A program made the translations under genes and the position numbers. DNA of 64,000 nucleotides from Verrucomicrobiales bacterium (lineage in GTDB: Bacteria; Verrucomicrobiota; Verrucomicrobiia; Verrucomicrobiales; DEV007): assembly GCA_018058245.1 (NCBI GenBank), contig JAGPCC010000002.1:2643-66642 (forward strand), written 5' to 3'. The first letter of the stretch is position 1. Every line of letters starts with the position of its first letter. Of the stretch, positions 28,692 through 61,952 are shown piece by piece. The notes beneath the pieces are model-generated. The model had not been told where the DNA came from, did no database searches, and was given only the letters and a program-made list of their open reading frames with translations.

Positions 28692-30266
28692 TCAGGCGGT
28701 AGCGCCGTTCTCGCCTAACACTGACTTGAAGATTGATTCCAACTCCCGGATTTCCTCGTCAGTCAGTAGCTCAAATTCCGGAAGTTCTCGTTTTCGCTTG
28801 GAAAGTTCACCGCCATTCTGGTGGCAAAGTTTTATGAAAAGGTCAGCGATGCGGTCAGGAAGCTCGACGACCTCCCGCATCTCCCGGCGTATCTCATCAT
28901 AGGCTGTCAAGAAGCGCAGTTCGGTGGGCAGTTCGGTCTCAATCGTCTCTCGAATGAACTCGATTGTGATTCGCGTCGCCTCGGTCAGGTCAATATAGCG
29001 ATAGAAATCGGCAGTGTCATTGGTGACGGTCATCCTCATCCGTTCATCGAGGGTGTATTCGACCCGCTCCATAAGAGGTTTGGAAAAGCTCTCGAGGGCT
29101 TGGTCGTATTCGCGTGGACGGTTGAGAATCACTGCGGAAATGGGCAGGATGATGCCTTCGGGTCCGAAATGATTGTGAGCAAGGACATGATGGAGAAGGA
29201 AGCGGTGGATGCGACCGTTCCCGTCGCTGAAGGGGTGGAGAAAGTTGAAGGCGAAGGAGATGACTGCGGCGGAGACCAAAGTGGAGACACCAGTGGGAGT
29301 TCGGAAAGTGAGATTCTTTTCAAGCAGCTTCACCTTTAGTATCCGATCTACGAGCAGATTCGCCATCTTCAGGAATTCCTTCATCAATTGATCGAGATCC
29401 TCCGGTTTCGGTCCCGCAAAATGGACTCGTTCGACATCGGGCGCTAGTGTCTCACCAACATAGATTTGTTCCCCGATCTCACTTCTCCACCCATCGTTCG
29501 CGAACCGAGGATCTACGATGGCCTGCTGCAATTCCACGAGTGCTTCCTTGTTTAGAAATCTTCTGTGCCACGCCTGTTCCAGAAGCCCGATGAACACCTC
29601 GGCACGCTTCTGACTCGGGGTTTCTCGTTCGATTTCATAACTGCTCTTGCTCTCCTTCACGTAAAGGTATCGAACTGCGCGTTCGAAGACTTCTGGCGAG
29701 TATTCCCCAATGATCGAAGTGCAACGGTCTTTCATCTCAGACTCGTCCCATTTTGGCAGCCCATTCCACCGCACGACTGGAGAGAAGTGGCCAGTACCGA
29801 GTATATTGGCGTTAATCCTCTGACGTTTCTGTTTCCGGACCGGTCCTGTCACGTAAATTTTTGGATCAAGCAAATCTACGTAATTGCCCTGTTTCAAATC
29901 GGGGAGATCTAACCGCTCTCGAGTGAAGCCTTCATAAAGATTCCAGAGAATTCGCGCATACCGTCCAGTAGGTCTCGTGCGCACGTAGGCAGTCAGTTCT
30001 ACGGGATCGATTTCCCTTACCAAAAGCTTCCGAAGCAGTTCCAGATGAAGACCCTCGCGACGGAGAGCGAACTCCAGCTGCTCAAACACATCTGCGCCGG
30101 GTCCCTGAGCGGCGGGCAAATATTCGATGACCCGCCCATTCCGCTCGATAATGCGGCGCGCTCCTTTTGAAAGCGAATGACTCTCCTTCCAGTGAGGCAT
30201 CGTGACGAGCCCGAATTGCTCAGCGAGCCAAGCGTATCCGAGAGGTTTACTTTCGGGGATGTCCAT
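28692..30266 (-). CDS. Fic-family protein (probable AMP/NMP transferase)
   Basis: Canonical HPFSDGNGRIHR motif; SSYEIE resembles the class II autoinhibitory helix. Confidence 0.92.
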   Translation of the reverse strand: MDIPESKPLGYAWLAEQFGLVTMPHWKESHSLSKGARRIIERNGRVIEYLPAAQGPGADVFEQLEFALRREGLHLELLRKLLVREIDPVELTAYVRTRPTGRYARILWNLYEGFTRERLDLPDLKQGNYVDLLDPKIYVTGPVRKQKRQRINANILGTGHFSPVVRWNGLPKWDESEMKDRCTSIIGEYSPEVFERAVRYLYVKESKSSYEIERETPSQKRAEVFIGLLEQAWHRRFLNKEALVELQQAIVDPRFANDGWRSEIGEQIYVGETLAPDVERVHFAGPKPEDLDQLMKEFLKMANLLVDRILKVKLLEKNLTFRTPTGVSTLVSAAVISFAFNFLHPFSDGNGRIHRFLLHHVLAHNHFGPEGIILPISAVILNRPREYDQALESFSKPLMERVEYTLDERMRMTVTNDTADFYRYIDLTEATRITIEFIRETIETELPTELRFLTAYDEIRREMREVVELPDRIADLFIKLCHQNGGELSKRKRELPEFELLTDEEIRELESIFKSVLGENGATA

Positions 30267-30684: not shown

Positions 30685-30951
30685 ATGGATAAAATCCGCG
30701 GAACCAAAAGCAGGGGGATCGACGCGAATACGTTCGAAATGAGCGTATTATGGCAAGATCCCATCAATACCCACACCTACAACTCCACCGAGAAGATCCA
30801 ATTCTCGGGTGACACAAAACCCGATCCGAGTCCGGTGGGCGGCGTTTACATCACGAACGCACTCCTTCTTAGTGTCGGAGACCGTGTTCATTGCAACATT
30901 CAGGCCCGTGACGTTTACGGGCGTGTCGTCGCCGATGTTTGGAAGTACTGA
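30685..30951 (+). pseudogene. Thermonuclease (SNase)-like fragment
   Basis: C-terminal half LLLSVGDRVHC...ARDVYGRVVADVW resembles the SNase D-x-YGR motif; the N-terminal catalytic DGD region and the C-terminal helices are absent. Confidence 0.45.
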
Positions 30952-30957
30952 ACAACC

Positions 30958-32022
30958 ATGACTACTCCCCGCCGCCCGCTGCATCGCGTTGCCGAGGTTC
31001 ACTCCGGTCTTCCAGTGAGTGCCTCTGAACCGGAGACATCGGGCGGCGGGGCACTGGTCCTTGCCTTAATGCCGGCGTCGCTGAAATTCGATGCTGAGTT
31101 TTCGCCGGGGTCGGAAACTCTAGTCAAAGTCCTTGCCGCTTCGGCACCGGATTCCCGATTCCAGGTTCAGTCCGGGGATATCCTCGTTACCGCCAAGTCG
31201 ACGGAAGCGAGCCTTCGCTGCGGAATCATTGCAGCGGATTGGGACCAGCGTCCTTCCCCGGTCTTTGCGTCAAGCTTGATTCGGATTCGAGTGGCAACGC
31301 CCGAGACGATTCTTCCGCGCTTTCTCCACGCCTGGCTGAGCAGCTCGAGCGGGAAAATTTCATTAAAGGCCGTATCCCAATCCGCGACCTCGCAAATGAA
31401 CCTCACGACCGCCGCGATCTCCCAACTTCAAGTTCCAGTTCCACCGATGGAGGAGCAACGGAGGATTGTGGAGTTTCTCGACGCGGCAGTCACCGCACAT
31501 GATTCCGCGATTGCCGCTGCTGAGACCCGGCTTGCTCTCGCGCACGAAATTGCATTTAACCCAACGCTTCCGATGCCCTTTCACGATTCCAAATCTCGAT
31601 CACCACGCCTTCTCATACAGACGGCCCGCCCGGAAACCACAATCCTGACAACCGAACGTGGCGATGGCACGTCGATGCCGAACTCGTCACTTTGGCCGGA
31701 AGTCAGAGAACTGGTCGAGGCGCTTCCCGATCGCCCCTTGGCGAGGCTCTTTGATCCGTATGCCAGCGAAACCGCTTACTTGGATCGAACCGAACTCGCC
31801 CGACTTATCGCCAAAGAACTGCGAACGCTGCTTGCCATTTGCGCAGCCCACCCGCACGATCTGATTCGGACCTACGAGAAAGAGGCGATGATCGACGTCG
31901 ATTACACGCTGGCTTCCCGCCTCGGAATCTACATGGGCGAACGCTCCGTTGATTACTTTCTGATGGAACTCGAAACCCTTCCCCCTGAAACCCAGGAACA
32001 AGTCCACGTTCACCTTACCTGA
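30958..32022 (+). CDS. hsdS: Half-size HsdS-like specificity subunit (one TRD) with ~150-aa unknown C-terminal extension
   Basis: GDILV, LIRIR, FLHAWLSS, Q-x-NLT...ISQLQVPVPPMEEQRRIV conserved HsdS helix; only one TRD. Confidence 0.72.
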   Translation: MTTPRRPLHRVAEVHSGLPVSASEPETSGGGALVLALMPASLKFDAEFSPGSETLVKVLAASAPDSRFQVQSGDILVTAKSTEASLRCGIIAADWDQRPSPVFASSLIRIRVATPETILPRFLHAWLSSSSGKISLKAVSQSATSQMNLTTAAISQLQVPVPPMEEQRRIVEFLDAAVTAHDSAIAAAETRLALAHEIAFNPTLPMPFHDSKSRSPRLLIQTARPETTILTTERGDGTSMPNSSLWPEVRELVEALPDRPLARLFDPYASETAYLDRTELARLIAKELRTLLAICAAHPHDLIRTYEKEAMIDVDYTLASRLGIYMGERSVDYFLMELETLPPETQEQVHVHLT

Positions 32023-32039
32023 CCCCTGATCATTCCCCC

Positions 32040-33809
32040 ATGCTCACCCGCGAAGAACTCAACCGCCAGCTCTGGGGCGCCGCCGACATCCTGCGCGGTG
32101 CCGTCGATGCCGCCGATTTCAAGAATCACATCCTCTCCCTGCTTTTCCTGAAGCGGCTTTCCGACGTCTTCTTCGAACGGCGCGAGGAAATCCTGCGGGA
32201 ATGGCGGGAGGCGGGAAAGTCGCCCGCCGAAGCTGAAGCCATTGCCGATGATCCCGACGAATACGACGACGGGGCCTACTTCCTGCCGGTCGAATCGCGC
32301 TGGCCCTCGCTGATGAAGGTCGCCGAAAACCGCGCCGAGGCGATCGACAAGGCCCTCGTCGCCATCGAAGACACGAACTCGGCCTACCTCAGCGGCGTCC
32401 TGGCCGGAGTCCGCTTCAACGACGAGCGCCGCTTCGGCGACGCGGCGACGATGGACGGTCTGATGCAGCGTCTCCTCGCGCACTTCGCGAGGATTCCGCT
32501 CGGGAACCGCGATCTCCTCGAGCCCGACGTGCTCGGGAATGCCTACGAGTTTCTCATCGAGCGATTTGCGGAGACGGCAGGGAAAAAGGGCGGCGAGTTT
32601 TACACCCCGCGCGGAGTTGTACGCCTCCTCGTGGAGCTGCTTGATCCCCGCGAAGGCATGCGGATCAACGATCCCACGAGCGGATCCGGCGGTATGTTGA
32701 TCGAGTGCGGGCATCACATCGAGGAGCGCGGGGGGAATCCGCGCAATCTCACCCTGACCGGTCAGGAAAAAAACATCGGCACCTGGGCGATCTGCCGTCT
32801 GAACATGCTCCTCCACGGCTTCCCCGACGCCGACATCCGCGCCGGCGATACGATCCGATCACCGAAGTTCACCACTCACGGGTCACTCGATGCCTTCGAC
32901 CGCGTCATCGCCAATCCGCCCTTTTCCTTGAAGGACTGGGGTGCCGATTCAGCAAGCTCCGATCCTTACCATCGTTTCGAGCGTGGCATCCCACCGAAGA
33001 CGAAGGGCGACATGGCCTTCCTGCTCCACATGATCGAGTCCGTCCGCGAGCGTCGCGGCATGGCCGGCGTGGTTCTACCCCATGGAGTCCTCTTCCGCGG
33101 TGGGTCGGAGGCGAAGATACGCGAATCATTGCTGAAGGACGACCTGATCGAGGCCATCATCGGTCTCCCCGCCTCCCTCTTCTTCGGCACCGGGATTCCC
33201 GCCGCCCTTGTCATCTGCAATTGGAACAAAGCCCCTGAGCGGAAGGGGCGCGTCCTCATCGTTGATGCCTCGACCGATGGCCTTTACCGCGAGGGAAAAT
33301 CCCGCAACTTCCTCGATCCCGTCGATGTCCTGAGGATCGCCGCGATCTTTCACGGATGGGCCGACCCCGGTCGCACCGTGGAAGCGGTCGAGTCCATCGC
33401 CACGACGTGGAAGGCGGCACTCGCGCGACACCGCGACCGCCAGATCGAGCGCGCAGGTGGACCGGCGTCGGAACTTGCCCCTCGAATTCACGAGGACTTT
33501 GACACGCGCCTCGCCGAAATCGAACGGGGCTCCGCGTCGCTCCGCGACTGGTTCGGCGCGACACACCCCGCTCCGGGGGGAGGCACGCGATCCAGTCTTG
33601 AAAAACACGCCGCCGTTGTCGCGGTGAAGGAGGTGCTCAAGGAACACAAGGGCAACCTTAACATCACCCGCCATGTTGATGCGATGGATCCACCGCCGAG
33701 GTTGGATGTGGTGGCGGAGCTGGCGAAACTGCGGGAGTTGGAGCTGAAGCGCGATGAGGCGGAGAAGAAGATGAATGAATTGTTGAAGGAGTTTGGGTAT
33801 GAAAACTAA
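32040..33809 (+). CDS. hsdM: Type I R-M methyltransferase subunit (m6A)
   Basis: LWGAADILRG, GEFYTPRGV, DPTSGSGGML, ANPPFS, VLPHGVLFRGG, NLNITRHVD. Confidence 0.96.
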   Translation: MLTREELNRQLWGAADILRGAVDAADFKNHILSLLFLKRLSDVFFERREEILREWREAGKSPAEAEAIADDPDEYDDGAYFLPVESRWPSLMKVAENRAEAIDKALVAIEDTNSAYLSGVLAGVRFNDERRFGDAATMDGLMQRLLAHFARIPLGNRDLLEPDVLGNAYEFLIERFAETAGKKGGEFYTPRGVVRLLVELLDPREGMRINDPTSGSGGMLIECGHHIEERGGNPRNLTLTGQEKNIGTWAICRLNMLLHGFPDADIRAGDTIRSPKFTTHGSLDAFDRVIANPPFSLKDWGADSASSDPYHRFERGIPPKTKGDMAFLLHMIESVRERRGMAGVVLPHGVLFRGGSEAKIRESLLKDDLIEAIIGLPASLFFGTGIPAALVICNWNKAPERKGRVLIVDASTDGLYREGKSRNFLDPVDVLRIAAIFHGWADPGRTVEAVESIATTWKAALARHRDRQIERAGGPASELAPRIHEDFDTRLAEIERGSASLRDWFGATHPAPGGGTRSSLEKHAAVVAVKEVLKEHKGNLNITRHVDAMDPPPRLDVVAELAKLRELELKRDEAEKKMNELLKEFGYEN

Positions 33810-34380
33810 AGAAAACCAAGTCCAACGCGTTGGCTGGTCCGAGCACTATCTTGGCGAACTTTTCTCCGAGAGAAGGGAACCCGGTATCTCGGGACTGCCA
33901 ATTCTCTCGGTCACAATGAACTCCGGGGTGGTCGCACGCTCCGACTTGGGTAGACGCATCGAATCCGAATTGGCAGATGAATCGCACGCCTTAGTCCGGA
34001 AAAATGACATCGCGTATAATATGATGCGGATGTGGCAGGGCGTCTCCGGCTTAGCGCCATGCGATGGACTCGTTAGCCCAGCCTACGTCGTTCTCAACCC
34101 GAGTGATAGAATAGACCCACTATTTGCGAGCTATCTCTTCAAGATGCCTGAAACGATTCGTCTCTTTCATCGATTTTCGCAGGGTCTGACAGACGACCGG
34201 CTTCGTCTATATTTCGATCAATTCTCTGCAATACGCGTCAATATTCCGGACTCGGTTGAAACTCAGCGGAACATCGCTTCACTCATTTCGACGTTCGACG
34301 AGCGAATTTCACAATCTGAAGCAACTACAGATTTTCTGCGATTCGCGAAGCATGCGCTTTGCCAAGATCTCCTCTCATGA
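33799..34380 (+). CDS. hsdS: Second half-size HsdS specificity subunit (one TRD)
   Basis: W-x4-LGEL start, NDIAYN, VSPAYVVL, QRNIAS...KHALCQDLL end; overlaps the hsdM stop; 193 aa. Confidence 0.85.
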   Translation: MKTKENQVQRVGWSEHYLGELFSERREPGISGLPILSVTMNSGVVARSDLGRRIESELADESHALVRKNDIAYNMMRMWQGVSGLAPCDGLVSPAYVVLNPSDRIDPLFASYLFKMPETIRLFHRFSQGLTDDRLRLYFDQFSAIRVNIPDSVETQRNIASLISTFDERISQSEATTDFLRFAKHALCQDLLS

Positions 34381-35591
34381 GCGAACCCTCCGGAAACGTT
34401 ATCATCCTTGGTGCGGGCGCAAGCTTCAACGCCGGGATTCCGTTAATGTCGAACTTCATTGACACGATGTGGAATCTCGCACGGACAGGGCGCGGTCCGG
34501 AGGGAGCAATCACGCCCGCCGACCGAAAAATTCTAGAGAATGCCCTTGGCGTTCGTGAGGATTTGGATGGCTATCATGGCCGAGCCTCGTTCGACATGTG
34601 GAACATCGAGGATCTCCTCTCGATTCTATCGTTCAACGCCATGGCGGGTGGAAAGAAGGAAAAGAACCGCCTCGAAGCGATCACTAAGGGAATTGCGAAG
34701 ACGATTGAAATCACATGCAACGTCAAGCACGACGGAAACATTGAAACCGATCCAGAGAAGGGCAGGAACTATCTCTATGAGGAGTTTTGGAATTCGCTTC
34801 TTAAATGGTCCCGGGATACAAAGCTTCCAGTCCCACCTATTGTCACGTTCAATTACGACCTTGTTTTGGAACGCTCTTTGATGCGCGTACTCACGGGGTT
34901 TCGTTACTTCGACGAGCGGAATAAAGGATTTCCATGGAGATCGGTTCTGATCCGGTACGGGGCGTCTGCATTTGATGAGGTCGTATTTGACGCAAAATTC
35001 GTTCGGTGGGAGACAAGGGGCGAGCGATACGAATCAAACTGGGGGCTAAAGCTCAGTGAGTCCACTACGTCACCCGTTGATGATGACGATTACGTGCTTC
35101 GAATCAACCTCTGCAAACTCCATGGCTCTCTAAATTTTCCTCGTTCGGAGAAGGACAAAACTGATAAACCAGCCGGACATCGCCTTGTGACGGCCCTTGA
35201 AGATCCTTTGATTCTTCCTCCGGTCTTCAACAAAGCGACAAATAGTCTCGGGGGATCAACTTGGGCCGAAGCATTGCGCTGCATCCGCGCCTGTAAGAAT
35301 CTGATCATCTGCGGATACAGTCTGCCCGCGACAGACATCTACATGCAGTATTTCCTAAAGTCGGCGCTCGGTCCGAATCAAGATTTGAATCGGATGTTTA
35401 TTTACGACCGCTCGCTCTTCATCCCCGAAGAGTCAGCAGCCGCCGAATCACTTAAGAACCGATATTCCGCAATTTTCTCTCCGGGTATTCAACATCGAAT
35501 CCATTTCGATCCGCCACGACACAACGGAGGAACCTTCGAAGACCTGGTATACATCCTTCAAAAATACCCAGATCAAATTCTCTTCGGCTGA
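34377..35591 (+). CDS. SIR2-like domain protein (putative NADase effector)
   Basis: ILGAGAS, TFNYD, KLHGS, ILPP-x-x-NK and CGYS motifs; ATGA overlap with the hsdS stop. Confidence 0.85.
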   Translation: MSEPSGNVIILGAGASFNAGIPLMSNFIDTMWNLARTGRGPEGAITPADRKILENALGVREDLDGYHGRASFDMWNIEDLLSILSFNAMAGGKKEKNRLEAITKGIAKTIEITCNVKHDGNIETDPEKGRNYLYEEFWNSLLKWSRDTKLPVPPIVTFNYDLVLERSLMRVLTGFRYFDERNKGFPWRSVLIRYGASAFDEVVFDAKFVRWETRGERYESNWGLKLSESTTSPVDDDDYVLRINLCKLHGSLNFPRSEKDKTDKPAGHRLVTALEDPLILPPVFNKATNSLGGSTWAEALRCIRACKNLIICGYSLPATDIYMQYFLKSALGPNQDLNRMFIYDRSLFIPEESAAAESLKNRYSAIFSPGIQHRIHFDPPRHNGGTFEDLVYILQKYPDQILFG

Positions 35592-35608: not shown

Positions 35609-38599
35609 ATGCCCGAACGCCCCGACAGCCAGACCCCCGCCCTCGCCCTTCTCCGCGACGTGCTGGGCTATTCGGCGACGACGGGCGCGGAACTCACCAA
35701 GGAACGCGGCACCCTTTCCGACCCGTGGCTGGAGTCGCGCCTTCTCGCTGCCGTGAAACGCGTCAATCCGGGTCTCGGGGAAGGCGCGGCGCGCCAGGCG
35801 ATCCTCACCTTGCGCCAAACCGCCGGTCCGGATCTCCTCGAGGCGAACGAACGGCTCCACGTGCTCCTCTCGCGCTGGGTCAGCGTCGAGGAACCCGCCT
35901 CAGTCCCCGGGCAACCGCCGATGCGACGCAGCGTGCGTTTCTTCGATTTCGAGACGGTGTCGAACAACGAGTTCCTCGTCACCGAAGAATTCGTGGTGAA
36001 AGGACCGCAGCGCGAACGGCGCTTCGATCTTGTCATTCACGTCAACGGTCTGCCTCTCGTTGTAATCGAGTGCAAGGATCCCGCCGATCCCCACGCGATC
36101 GAGAAGGGCGTCGGGGATCTACTCGCCTATCAACGCGCCGAAACTGGAGCTCCGCGCCTCTTCGAGACCATCCATTTCTGCCTCGCCCTCAACCGGCACG
36201 ACGCGCGCTACGGCACGGTCGCGACTGAACTACGCCATTACGCCCGCTGGAAGAGCCTGCGCCCCTTCACCGAGGAGAGTCTCACCTCGGCGCTGGGCCG
36301 CACCCCGACACCGCAGGATGAAACCCTCGCCTCGCTCTGCGAACCAGCGCAACTGCTCGACTTTCTCCGGGGATTTGTCGCCTACGAGCGGCGCGGCGGT
36401 CGGCTCGTGAAAAAGCTGGCCCGCTATCAACAATGGGAGGCCGTCATCGATGCCGACGATCGCGTCTCCGACCGCGGACGCGGACCACTGAAACAACGCG
36501 GCGGCGTGATCTGGCACACCCAGGGCAGCGGAAAGAGCCTGACGATGCTGTGGCTGGCCCTACGCCTGCGACGCTCACCTGAACTGGAGAATCCGGGTCT
36601 CGTCATCGTAACGGACCGGAGCGACCTCGACCGCCAGATCGCGACCACCTTCCGGAACTGCGGCTTCGAAAATCCCGTGACCGCCGCGAGCGTGCGCCAT
36701 CTCGGACAGTTGCTCGACAATGCCGAGGGCCAGACCCTGTTGACGACGATCCAGAAATTCGAAGAAGACCTCACGCGCAAGGGCCTGCACCGGATCAAGG
36801 TGCCGATGCACCGTGGCGGCAAGATCATCGTACTGATTGACGAGGCCCACCGCACCGAATACGGGGTCTTCAACGCGCGGCTCCGCGAGGCCATGCCCGA
36901 CGCCTGCTTCATCGCCTTCACCGGTACGCCGATCGCAAAAACCCTCGCAAAGTTCGGCAGCTATATCCACCGCTACACCATGCCCGTCTCGGTGCAGGAC
37001 GGAGCCACCGTCCCGATCCTTTATGAAAATCGCCTTCCCGACCTCGCCGTGTGGGGCAAGCGGCTCGACCCGATCTTCGACGCGGAGCTGGTCCATCTCA
37101 CCGAGGAACAGCGCGAACTGGTGAAGAAGAAGGAAGCGACGATGCGCCGCATCGCCGAGGCCGAGGACCGCATCGAGATGATCGCCCACGACATCGCGAA
37201 ACATTACCGCGAGAACTTTATGGCCGATGGCTTCAAGGGACAGGTCGCGGCCTGCTCGCAAAAGGCGGCGGCCCGCTACTACGAGGCGCTCGACCGGCTC
37301 CTGCCGGGTAAAGTTGCCCTCCTCATCTCCGATCCGCCGAAAGGCGACGACGCGCTCTGGGAGCTGAAACGGAAATTCGCCAACGAATCGGCAATCATCG
37401 AGCAGTTTCTCAACGATCCGCCGGACCGTCTTGCCCTAATCGTCGTCGCCGAAAAATACCTGACAGGGTTCGATGCTCCAGTCGAGAGGGTCCTTTACCT
37501 CGACAAACCCTTGCGGGAACACAATCTGCTCCAGGCGATCGCCCGGGTGAACCGCCCCCTGCCCGAACTCGGCAAAGAGTGGGGGCTGGTGGTGGATTAT
37601 TGGGGTGTCTCCGGCTTTCTGGATCAGGCCCTCGAAGGTCTGCACGAGGATGTCGATCCCGGTGAGATCCTTGTGGAGCGCCTCGGAGAAGAGGCCTACG
37701 CCCGCCTGCGGGCCTGCCATAACGATCTCGCCGACTGTTTCCCGAAAGGCCTTTCGCGGAAGGTGATCGAACCGTGGCTGGAGGCAATCGAAGCCGACGA
37801 TAGACGCGCCATCTTCCTCGCCCGATACCGGGACTTCTACCACTCGATCGAGCAACTGCTCCCCGATCCGCGGGCGCTCGACTTTCTCCCCGACCTCGCC
37901 TGGTACCGGCGGGTGCGGAAAGAGGCCGAAAGCGCCTTTCAGGAACGCGATCTGTCCATCCCCGACTGCTCGGCCCGGATCCGGCAACTGATCGACCGTC
38001 ACGTCCGCGGCGAAGAGATCATCCCACTGCTCAAACCGATCGATATTCTCGGTGAAGACTTTTCGGTGGAGATTGAAAAACTGCGCAGCCCGCGTGCGAA
38101 GGCGATGCGTATGGAGCACGCAATCCGGCATACGATCAGCGTGAAGCTGCATGAAGATCCCGTCTTCTTCGAAAGTCTCTGCGAACGCCTCGCCCGCATC
38201 ATCGGCGAACGGAAGGCCAGCCGTCTTGATGACATCGCCGAATTCCGCCTCCTCGGCGAACTCGCCCGTGAGATGCGGCAACGCGATCAGGAGGCCGGCC
38301 GTCAGGGTGTGAAGACAGAGGAACTTCCCTTCTTCCACGCCATTCAAAAGGCCCTCGAAAAACCGAAGGAGGGTGTCGCCGAAGACACGGAGCCTGACCT
38401 GCCAAAACTGACGCGAGAGATCCTCGCCGATCTCCAGGAAATCGCCGTGATCGACTGGGAGACCAAGGAAGAGGTGATGCGCGACATGCGCCGGGCGATC
38501 AAGCGGCGGCTACGCCTTGATTACACGATTCCCGCCGATGCGATCGAACCACTCGTGGGCTCATTGATGGAGCTCGCCAAGGTACACCTCCGTCGCTGA
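35609..38599 (+). CDS. hsdR: Type I restriction endonuclease subunit R
   Basis: FDLVIHVNGLPLVVIECK nuclease, HTQGSGKS Walker A, DEAHR, FTGTP, LTGFD, LLQAIARVNR. Confidence 0.97.
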   Translation: MPERPDSQTPALALLRDVLGYSATTGAELTKERGTLSDPWLESRLLAAVKRVNPGLGEGAARQAILTLRQTAGPDLLEANERLHVLLSRWVSVEEPASVPGQPPMRRSVRFFDFETVSNNEFLVTEEFVVKGPQRERRFDLVIHVNGLPLVVIECKDPADPHAIEKGVGDLLAYQRAETGAPRLFETIHFCLALNRHDARYGTVATELRHYARWKSLRPFTEESLTSALGRTPTPQDETLASLCEPAQLLDFLRGFVAYERRGGRLVKKLARYQQWEAVIDADDRVSDRGRGPLKQRGGVIWHTQGSGKSLTMLWLALRLRRSPELENPGLVIVTDRSDLDRQIATTFRNCGFENPVTAASVRHLGQLLDNAEGQTLLTTIQKFEEDLTRKGLHRIKVPMHRGGKIIVLIDEAHRTEYGVFNARLREAMPDACFIAFTGTPIAKTLAKFGSYIHRYTMPVSVQDGATVPILYENRLPDLAVWGKRLDPIFDAELVHLTEEQRELVKKKEATMRRIAEAEDRIEMIAHDIAKHYRENFMADGFKGQVAACSQKAAARYYEALDRLLPGKVALLISDPPKGDDALWELKRKFANESAIIEQFLNDPPDRLALIVVAEKYLTGFDAPVERVLYLDKPLREHNLLQAIARVNRPLPELGKEWGLVVDYWGVSGFLDQALEGLHEDVDPGEILVERLGEEAYARLRACHNDLADCFPKGLSRKVIEPWLEAIEADDRRAIFLARYRDFYHSIEQLLPDPRALDFLPDLAWYRRVRKEAESAFQERDLSIPDCSARIRQLIDRHVRGEEIIPLLKPIDILGEDFSVEIEKLRSPRAKAMRMEHAIRHTISVKLHEDPVFFESLCERLARIIGERKASRLDDIAEFRLLGELAREMRQRDQEAGRQGVKTEELPFFHAIQKALEKPKEGVAEDTEPDLPKLTREILADLQEIAVIDWETKEEVMRDMRRAIKRRLRLDYTIPADAIEPLVGSLMELAKVHLRR

Positions 38600-38602
38600 C
38601 TT

Positions 38603-39283
38603 ATGGCAGGAACATTCCATCGGGACGCCGTCCGATTCGGCAACACGGAGATCGCGTATAAGATCCGCCGGTCACGCGAGCGAAAAACACTCGGGATCAC
38701 GGTTTGTGGTCCATGGGTCGAGGTAGCCGCGCCGGCAGGGATGCGTGCTTCGGCGATACGCCCATTGGTCTTGAAAAAGGGTGCCTGGATTCTCCAGAAG
38801 CTCGATCTTGCGAGACGTCACGCTCCGATTTATCCACAGGTGCTCAAGGCAGGTGACAGCATCCGTTTCTTTGGGAGACAGTATTTGCTGAGGATACACA
38901 AGGTGGAGGGAAAACGCTCGTGGCTTGAACAAGCGGGAGGCAGGTTCCATTTATATCTTGCCGAGCCTTCGAACCCTGATGTCGGGCATCAGCTATTTAA
39001 GCGATGGTTCCGCGAGCAGCTTCAACTTGCGCTGCCTCAATGGATCGAAGAGTTCTCGAAGAAGTTGGGTATAGAGCCTCCGCCGTTTGATGTGAGAGAG
39101 CTGGGTAGCCGGTGGGGGAGTTGCAGTGCGTCGCGTAAAATTCGTTTCCACTGGCTTCTCACCACCCAAACACCTGAGTTCGCTCGCCACGTCGTCGCTC
39201 ACGAGCTATGTCACCTTATCGACCCAACACACTCGGCGGCTTTCTTACAGCTGTTGAAGCGAATTAACCCCAGCGGATTTTAG
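38603..39283 (+). CDS. YgjP/SprT-like M48 zinc metallopeptidase domain protein
   Basis: RKTLGI, RWGSCS, HELCH...HSAAF; a common companion of hsdR. Confidence 0.88.
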   Translation: MAGTFHRDAVRFGNTEIAYKIRRSRERKTLGITVCGPWVEVAAPAGMRASAIRPLVLKKGAWILQKLDLARRHAPIYPQVLKAGDSIRFFGRQYLLRIHKVEGKRSWLEQAGGRFHLYLAEPSNPDVGHQLFKRWFREQLQLALPQWIEEFSKKLGIEPPPFDVRELGSRWGSCSASRKIRFHWLLTTQTPEFARHVVAHELCHLIDPTHSAAFLQLLKRINPSGF

Positions 39284-61136: not shown

Positions 61137-61205
61137 CCTTAGAAACACAGTTCTCGATCAGAGGCAACCCGAAAACGGGGGTCAGTCCTAGAATTTAGAA
61201 TTTTG

Positions 61206-61952
61206 TCCATCGCCTTTCCCATGACTGTTCCTTCTTCGGTTTGGTCTTTACATCCTTTTCTCGATACTGCCTTACTCGCGCTCTTGAGGTGAAGTCGATC
61301 AGCGATCCAGTCCTGACGCGCCGTCGTGCGCTCGCAGATCGCCCAGGCAATCGCCACCTTGCGCCAGTCGCCTTTGGGCGTCCTCCGTAGAGATATATCA
61401 TCAATATGGAAGTGTTTGAGTCCCTCGGTGAGATAGTCCCGTTGCCAGCGCAGACGGTGGCCGATGCCACTCAGATTGCCTTCAATGAGGTTGGCCTTAT
61501 AACGACCACCAAAGAGGTGACCCCAGAGTCGGTTTCGTGCGTTGATCCGCCGGGTGATGGAAAGCCACGCCGCGCCAGTGGCATGGGTATGGCAATCGGC
61601 GGAGGAGCCGATTGGAAAAGGCTTGGACGGAGCGGAGCGAGTCAATTCTGGAACCAGGTCATCCCCTCAACCAAGTTCGCCTTCGGCGTTTCAAGTACCC
61701 AGTGGTAGTGGTTACCCATCAGCACCCACGCGTACGTCTTGAACTTCGAAAGGTCGCACGCCTCGGCAAGGGTCTCAGCGGAAACTTCACGGTCGGAGTC
61801 GGAATGGACGATCTCCTGACGGCAACGCCGAGCCGCGATCAGCGGCACAGAAAATGCGAAGCGGAACCGTGTAGGCGGCTTCGCAGCCAATTGCCACGCG
61901 CCATGACGTGGTAGACCGCACCCTCATATTCGATCCGTGGCTCTCAGGGCAT
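61206..61952 (-). pseudogene. REP-associated tyrosine transposase (Y1/HUH) pseudogene
   Basis: MP*EPRIEYEGAVYHVMARGN, then after an insertion RQEIVH...AWVLMGNHYH (HUH), then in another frame GHLFGGRYKA and KGDWRKVAIAW; has a nonsense codon, frameshifts and an internal deletion. Confidence 0.85.
61871..61888 (+). repeat. GTAG-type REP-like palindrome
   Basis: GTAG followed by GCGGCTTCGCAGCC; imperfect hairpin GGCGGC/GCAGCC. Confidence 0.55.

Follow-up and report, generated by a model that had tools for sequence, protein, structure and literature searches.

Two HsdS-like genes, each with a single target recognition domain, flank hsdM in a Type I restriction-modification operon from Verrucomicrobiales

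Gene content of the operon and the two half-size specificity modules

The subject of this study is a 64,000-nucleotide stretch of DNA from a Verrucomicrobiales bacterium (hereafter the window; GCA_018058245.1, contig JAGPCC010000002.1, forward-strand positions 2,643 to 66,642), which carries a Type I restriction-modification operon with two genes related to the specificity gene hsdS, here called S1 and S2. Coordinates are positions within this window, and L-numbers (L001 etc.) denote the related loci that were compared with it. The genes are tightly packed on the + strand in the order 88-aa open reading frame (ORF), S1, hsdM, S2, SIR2-like gene, hsdR and YgjP-like gene (Table 1). Type I enzymes are described as R2M2S complexes with one S subunit that contains two target recognition domains (TRDs). 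The HsdM domain set and the nuclease and translocase of HsdR are all present in this Type I operon, which falls into a large subfamily that extends across phyla. The form of HsdS found in relatives, a single chain carrying two TRDs and two conserved helices, is absent from the window. Instead, hsdM is flanked by two HsdS-like ORFs on the same strand, each with one Methylase_S/Specificity_I match, as a first-pass annotation of this DNA had reported, and no other hsdS or hsdM was found elsewhere in the 64 kb.

Table 1. Features of the operon and its immediate surroundings (window coordinates).
Feature	Position	Strand	Description
Fic-domain gene	28692..30266	-	divergent to operon; Pfam Fic E 8e-11; PADLOC PDC-S24 E 1e-158
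88-aa ORF	30685..30951	+	directly upstream of S1; function unassigned
S1 core, short-S (half-HsdS) module	30958..31557	+	aa 1-200 of 354-aa ORF; one TRD and one conserved helix
X, C-terminal extension	31558..32022	+	~150 aa; in-frame fusion to S1; not a TRD
hsdM, Type I N6-methyladenine (m6A) methyltransferase subunit	32040..33809	+	589 aa; N6_Mtase (PF02384, E 5e-83), HsdM_N (PF12161, E 6e-23), TIGR00497 (E 5e-56)
S2, single-TRD allele of variable hsdS slot	33799..34380	+	193 aa; TRD2 and C-terminal conserved helix
SIR2-like cargo gene	34359..35591	+	PADLOC SIR2 E 5e-13; Pfam SIR2_2 weak, E 5e-3
hsdR, restriction/translocase subunit	35609..38599	+	996 aa; HSDR_N (N-terminal nuclease, E 6e-29), SWI2_SNF2 (superfamily 2 translocase, E 3e-67), ResIII, T1R_D3-like, T1RH-like_C; TIGR00348 E 4e-138
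YgjP-like metallopeptidase gene	38603..39283	+	last operon gene; PF01863 E 3e-42

The downstream gene, S2, is read from an ATG at 33799, or as 195 aa from a TTG at 33793, and overlaps the end of hsdM by 11 nt. Its AlphaFold2 (AF2) model, with a confidence score (pLDDT) of 90.7, consists of one globular TRD (aa 13-150) followed by one 40-residue helix (aa 153-192), in agreement with the length of about 193 aa and the single TRD and helix that had been proposed from the letters. Foldseek aligned the model with halves of the HsdS proteins of M. jannaschii and T. tengcongensis and of PacII S, as well as with Esub1 (TM ~0.6), a half-S that forms homodimers. The fold search alone identified S2 in this way, as a sequence search against PDB chains returned nothing significant (best E 0.05, urease). 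Among PADLOC models, S2 matched PDLC03087 (E 8e-27) and aligned to positions 221-410 of 418, that is, to its second half.

L002, the closest relative (86% nt identity), aligns collinearly with the window apart from one segment: 576 bp that follow directly on the shared hsdS start codon in L002 are absent from the window. The absent segment corresponds to TRD1 and the central helix of the two-TRD hsdS (354-383 aa) present in L002, L006-L009 and L010. The TRD2 of these two-TRD relatives is ~64% identical to S2 (measured against L006), and the S2 helix is of the C-terminal type, with 17 of 42 residues identical to the C-terminal helix of L006 (z = 16.5). Based on the collinearity with L002 and the type of its helix, S2 can be regarded as a clean in-frame single-TRD allele of the hsdS slot, evidently the distal half (TRD2 and C-terminal helix) of a normal two-TRD hsdS. 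The first-pass annotation had viewed S1 and S2 as one specificity subunit split in two and had named, as an observation that would speak against this view, a second ORF that is a truncation of a full-length hsdS in close relatives; the two-TRD genes of L002, L006-L009 and L010 provide that observation. Its remark that neither gene has a frameshifted second half was borne out, since no second-TRD remnant was found: S2 runs into the gene that follows it, and the S1 tail does not resemble a TRD.

A half-size allele in L014 is 80% identical to S2, with the same N-terminal leader and a ratio of nonsynonymous to synonymous divergence (dN/dS) of 0.05; S2 is under purifying selection and has been maintained in at least two lineages. 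Two other sets of apparent half-size genes were rejected. The 241-aa hsdS call in L008/L009, considered as a second truncated allele, has DNA identical to the 383-aa gene of L006 and is thus a gene-caller artefact, and several of the many 195-aa database matches begin with MQxLLLP, the end of the central helix, and so are probably fragments or internal starts instead of true half genes.

Damage to the hsdS slot was observed in several relatives. The two-TRD hsdS of L001-L004, the closest relative, carries a 1-nt deletion near the end of TRD2 (at ~13800) that places the C-terminal helix out of frame in four independent assemblies, and because of this frameshift the gene has probably either lost its activity or been left with TRD1 and the central helix alone. 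The island copy in L005 (GCA_041395045.1) is fully decayed, with a truncated S1-X, hsdM gone and hsdR in several fragments, and the hsdS genes of L069 and L100 are split.

The upstream gene, S1, had been described as an ORF of about 200 aa, a length that applies to its half-HsdS portion only. The S1 ORF (30958-32022) encodes 354 aa with no stop between the S1 core, aa 1-200, and the unrelated extension X, and ends 17 nt before the hsdM start. The core matches Pfam Methylase_S at aa 68-176 (E 3e-8) and PADLOC Specificity_I models down to E 8e-18, the longest match covering aa 7-188 (E 8e-16). Its AF2 model (pLDDT ~70-90) shows a TRD and a helix at residues 164-200, and relatives of 202-213 aa terminate just past the residues EIAF. 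With a dN/dS of 0.08-0.09, S1 is also under purifying selection. The extension (aa 200-354) is predicted to be helical at a pLDDT below 40 and is unrelated to a TRD. No Pfam match was found for X or for other genes in the same slot of relatives, and X has almost no homologues, a homologue search having returned one protein. The fusion is old and real, because L002 has it too (79% identity across the full ORF), as does the more distant L018 (42%). In L009, X stands alone as a gene of 140 aa in an ATGA overlap and is 49% identical to that of the window.

The arrangement as a whole is not an assembly artefact, given that 20 metagenome runs from 11 studies, sampled in 2017-2025, contain 84-100% of the sampled words of the stretch and that independent contigs cross every junction with single-nucleotide differences only and no indels. 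Metatranscriptome contigs, few and of low depth, were recovered on S2 and hsdM, with 100% identity over S2 positions 33983-34341.

Short specificity genes and mosaic divergence in related loci

To place the two genes in a wider context, 185,579 species genomes were scanned for the S2-type TRD, which gave 485 loci, and the best 80 of these 485 were annotated by ORF finding and phmmer. Family counts given here rest on these best 80 loci from species-representative genomes, 65 of which could be assessed for the layout of short and long S genes. In ~58 of the 65 (~89%), a short HsdS-like ORF (~190-250 aa, median 201) abuts the hsdM start and a two-TRD hsdS (~380-430 aa, median 400) follows downstream, in the general order short-S, hsdM, (RhuM), long two-TRD hsdS, (cargo), hsdR, ygjP. 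Gaps between short S and hsdM are mostly -25 to +26 nt. At the other end of hsdM, the two-TRD hsdS overlaps its 3' end in L006, L010 and L017-L020; in the window this slot holds the 193-aa allele with the 11-nt overlap kept. About half of the family loci (among L023-L090; e.g., L033 6967-7995 and L100 3464-4288) have a gene of ~1 kb between hsdM and hsdS, which is Virulence_RhuM-like in L100; the window has no such gene. Hosts include Proteobacteria, Planctomycetes, Verrucomicrobia, Acidobacteria, Desulfobacterota, Binatia, Latescibacterota, a Spirochaeta metagenome-assembled genome and Methanolobus.

Across these loci the identity of the short S tracks that of hsdM (Spearman 0.79), in contrast to the long S (0.12). 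End-to-end relatives of the S1 core, from a search of 1.84 billion representative proteins, were all ~190-212 aa long, and HsdS proteins of ~400 aa matched the core at aa 60-195 only, with ~30% identity. PADLOC contains short Specificity_I models of 190 and 208 positions, the latter being the best match of the short S of L101. Because the short S tracks hsdM, has exclusively short relatives and is represented by short PADLOC models, it forms a family of its own with S1 as a member. The first-pass reading of one subunit split in two thus did not hold, in that the family of S1 is found alongside complete two-TRD hsdS genes; to judge from these loci, neither a descent of the two halves from one ancestral hsdS nor relatives lacking a complete hsdS can be maintained. 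What did stand was the presence of two single-TRD HsdS-like genes around hsdM.

Two further leads on the short S were followed without result. The 853- and 876-aa HsdM ORFs of L071 and L092, considered as short-S/HsdM fusions of the Rosetta stone type, carry HsdM domains only. Plasmid-borne relatives of hsdM that were inspected (Klebsiella, Rhizobium) have the layout M-S(-R-YgjP) with no short S and are uninformative on short-S function.

Divergence along the operon is strongly uneven. Relative to L002, L006 and L014, hsdM and hsdR are 96-97% identical at the amino acid level with a synonymous divergence (dS) of ~0.3, whereas S1, S2, the cargo gene and YgjP have dS values from 1.2 to saturation. 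S1 alleles in particular are much older than hsdM and hsdR, with 59-82% amino acid identity and a dS above 1 up to saturation. The break points lie exactly at the hsdM start, the hsdM end and the hsdR start. The operon is thus a mosaic in which divergent cassettes (S1-X, S2-cargo and YgjP) stand beside the conserved genes hsdM and hsdR, which suggests either cassette exchange by recombination within the conserved genes or homogenization of hsdM and hsdR.

More than one hsdS-like gene per Type I locus is also a feature of phase-variable systems such as SpnD39III and the tvr locus. Those loci have silent partial hsdS copies, inverted repeats and a recombinase, whereas the S genes of the window are intact and in direct orientation. 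A repeat search found none longer than 27 nt, the longest inverted repeat being 27 nt at 74% complementarity and not located between the S genes, and no recombinase domain was detected in a Pfam scan of the operon genes. The lack of any repeat longer than 27 nt rules out an invertible or phase-variable hsdS locus.

Proposed assembly of the enzyme and role of the short subunit

On balance, we lean towards a reading in which S2 forms a homodimer that recognizes one symmetric bipartite site and S1-X is an accessory short-S subunit, not the missing half. S2, having kept the hsdM-overlapping start codon, TRD2 and the C-terminal helix, has replaced the long hsdS as an in-frame single-TRD allele, and would homodimerize via its single helix in the manner of the truncated HsdS of EcoR124I, EcoDXXI and NgoAV. 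Together with two HsdM and two HsdR, (S2)2 would then constitute an enzyme for one palindromic bipartite m6A site. S1-X, for its part, would act as a distinct short-S subunit, evolving together with HsdM and aiding correct assembly or specificity, as has been reported for the staphylococcal hsdS_short.

The homodimer is inferred from known half-S homodimers, from the likeness of the helices in two-TRD relatives and from an operon in Symmachiella that has no other S gene. That half-size HsdS can dimerize, a premise of the first-pass annotation, is established for the truncated HsdS of the Type IC systems EcoR124I (HsdS(delta50)) and EcoDXXI (deltaN/deltaC) and for the natural NgoAV (Loenen et al. 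2014, PMC3874165 sec. 26), and a half-S engineered in S. aureus CC398-1 behaves likewise (Bower et al. 2018, PMC6158711). Like these proteins, S2 consists of one TRD and one conserved helix from a two-TRD gene, and a palindromic bipartite site is what they lead one to expect for S2. Most of the precedents were truncated in the laboratory or come from a fragmented gene (an inactive remnant persists in NgoAV), whereas S2 is clean, in frame, under selection and present in at least two lineages; unlike them, S2 has kept the C-terminal half, and a short-S gene goes with it. Interchangeability of the helices has been used to explain the homodimers of Type IC systems (Loenen et al. 2014, PMC3874165 sec. 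26). In the two-TRD relatives L006, L010 and L033 the central and C-terminal helices share 28-41% identity (z = 3.4-10.3), a likeness that is suggestive, but no more, of mutual substitution. The operon of Symmachiella macrocystis (L099; GCA_007860075.1) consists of hsdM, hsdR, ygjP and a 200-aa half S of the S2 type; neither a short S nor any other hsdS lies within the 16.6-kb stretch examined.

For the accessory role of S1-X the only experimental precedent is the staphylococcal hsdRSMS operon. In S. xylosus TMW 2.1023/2.1324 this operon contains hsdS_short and hsdS_long, and its genes are co-transcribed (Front Microbiol 2023, PMC10030836). Expression of hsdSMS led to clean methylation of the asymmetric hsdS_long motif and of no extra motif, and hsdMS alone methylated poorly (PMC10030836). 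For sequence comparison we used S. nepalensis pSNJS101; the hsd operon does not lie within the first 50 kb of the S. xylosus plasmid. The window resembles the staphylococcal operon in having a single-TRD S gene of ~190-200 aa directly upstream of hsdM (200 aa for the S1 core), a main hsdS that overlaps the hsdM 3' end (by 8 bp there and 11 nt here), a short S that is never part of a long HsdS, and both S genes in one operon. It differs in gene order (R-S-M-S in staphylococci, S-M-S-cargo-R-YgjP here), in the main S being cut to one TRD and in the extra domain X borne by S1. Furthermore, the staphylococcal short S is highly conserved between strains, in contrast to the diverged S1 alleles at near-constant hsdM.

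Several observations weigh against this combination of an S2 homodimer and an accessory S1-X. S1 is only 24% identical to hsdS_short over 102 aa (E 1e-4) and HsdM is 34% identical to its staphylococcal counterpart, so these proteins are not orthologous and the accessory role rests on analogy. The N-terminal half of hsdS_long in S. xylosus gave no methylation without hsdS_short (PMC10030836), from which it follows that half-S homodimers are not functional in every family. The pairing of a short S with a half-size main S also occurs in L014, in the same layout as in the window, and in L101, which may mean that two single-TRD proteins cooperate. The divergence of the S1 alleles also fits a specificity determinant. 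Finally, no RNA contig was seen on S1, an absence that is uninformative in contig data.

A broader view, which we hold tentatively, is that the short S might be an obligatory fourth subunit of a very large Type I subfamily, co-evolving with HsdM and being neither a spare half nor a second specificity. If so, the window would be a natural minimal case in which the enzyme, (S2)2 + S1-X, obtains its specificity proteins from single-TRD chains only. As a variant, S1 could also pair with S2 and thereby add an asymmetric specificity.

The interpretation originally offered for this locus was that S1 and S2 are complementary halves that form heterodimers recognizing an asymmetric site, and perhaps S1/S1 and S2/S2 homodimers, with up to three specificities from one operon. 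Both genes do encode a TRD plus helix under purifying selection, their helices are of comparable length (37 and 40 residues), and co-expressed N- and C-terminal halves of EcoDXXI HsdS restore the wild-type specificity (PMC3874165 sec. 26). S1 alleles diverge as specificity genes do, and the short S plus half S layout recurs independently in L014 and in an unrelated lineage (L101-L103, 20 contigs), where a short S (183 aa), hsdM, half S (197 aa), Fic, hsdR and YgjP follow each other. However, the short S is unlikely to be there to supply a missing half because ~89% of the family loci already have a complete two-TRD hsdS beside it, and Symmachiella has an S2-type half S without any short S. The S1 and S2 helices are also not detectably similar (7 of 22 residues identical, z = 0.9, not significant), the S1 helix showing weak similarity to either long-S helix (z = 5-6). 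The staphylococcal short S yields no motif of its own, and in S1 the helix is followed by the 150-aa extension. Up to three specificities are therefore possible but not the best-supported reading, and we regard complementary halves as unlikely.

Improbable, too, is that the short S homodimerizes and forms with HsdM a symmetric-site enzyme of its own throughout the family, which would give two palindromic motifs in the window. Such independence might be expected of S1 from its complete TRD and helix, from the translational coupling of the short S to hsdM across the family and from S1 alleles that are far more diverged than hsdM. Like S1 and S2, Esub1 of Streptococcus pyogenes is a half-HsdS of ~200 aa, and it homodimerizes through its single helix (PDB 8VSQ/8VSR; PMC11754733). 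Esub1, though, is an orphan gene distant from hsd genes, whereas S1 and S2 lie inside an intact hsd operon, and it shows no clear HsdM binding and has been proposed to be a transcription-factor-like DNA binder (PMC11754733). Two specificities are further at odds with the single hsdS_long motif obtained from S. xylosus hsdSMS, and with the gradual change of the short S along with hsdM, as opposed to the swapping seen for a TRD.

Decay of the system in the window lineage, with S2 as a crippled remnant, would fit the frequent damage to the hsdS slot in relatives (frameshifted in L001-L004, decayed in L005, split in L069/L100) and the rarity of main hsdS genes with a single TRD (no more than 3 among the 80 loci, the window not counted), but it is quite improbable given the low dN/dS against the L014 allele, the exactly in-frame deletion with its coupled start kept, the otherwise intact operon genes, an allele unchanged in the 20 metagenomes and the metatranscriptome contigs on S2 and hsdM.

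Both the dimerization of half-size HsdS and a layout of short S, M and long S have been published before. To our knowledge, a second short S gene upstream of hsdM has been described once so far, in staphylococci. New in the present locus are the pairing of an X-fused short S with a main hsdS that has one TRD and is naturally maintained, and the mosaic, allele-like divergence of S1; new in the related loci is that members of a very broad Type I subfamily as a rule have a short S. Main hsdS alleles of a clean single-TRD form persist under selection in nature. If S2 does act as a homodimer, the system would be a natural symmetric-site enzyme outside Type IC, of a kind known mainly from laboratory truncations, and if the short S is essential, a fourth component would have to be added to the subunit model of a large share of Type I systems. 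Were the short S of such loci taken to provide half of the specificity, REBASE-style motif prediction from hsdS by TRD matching would err. Nothing at the locus contradicts known principles.

Cargo gene, Fic gene and other neighbors

The SIR2-like gene lies between hsdS and hsdR and is translationally coupled to both. Its likely start is an ATG at 34377 (alternatively 34359), which forms an ATGA overlap with the S2 stop. The slot between hsdS and hsdR holds other genes in relatives: an unassigned 349-aa gene in L006/L014, Fic in L020/L101, DUF6119 in L100 and an unassigned 550-aa gene in L033. This position seems to be a cargo slot in which Type I operons accommodate a second defence effector, much as the prr locus does with PrrC. 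The YgjP gene follows hsdR in most of the 80 family loci.

Upstream of the operon, the Fic gene matches PDC-S24, a candidate defence family of PADLOC. A Fic gene, likewise divergent to the operon, also stands beside the island in L001-L004, L006-L009, L014 and L018, where the flanking chromosomal genes differ. Because Fic is kept while these flanks change, the genes from Fic through ygjP behave together like a mobile defence island. The 88-aa ORF between Fic and S1 has no match in Pfam or PADLOC. It is exactly 88 aa long in L002, L006, L009, L010 and L014, and is 82-84% identical to the copies of L002, L014 and L006 with a dN/dS of 0.09-0.13. A promoter and terminator scan of the locus returned a promoter count at chance level.

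Within HsdM, an insertion of ~75 aa (aa ~442-515) between the catalytic domain and the C-terminal helix is seen as an alignment gap relative to staphylococcal HsdM. The Symmachiella macrocystis locus is a dense defence island, with a SIR2_2 + HerA pair (L099 12630-15753) directly after the hsdM/half-S/hsdR/ygjP operon and reverse transcriptase and ArdC-like genes upstream. Far from the operon, at 61139-61645 on the - strand of the window, another ORF is weakly similar to YgjP (phmmer E 7e-5 vs the operon YgjP).

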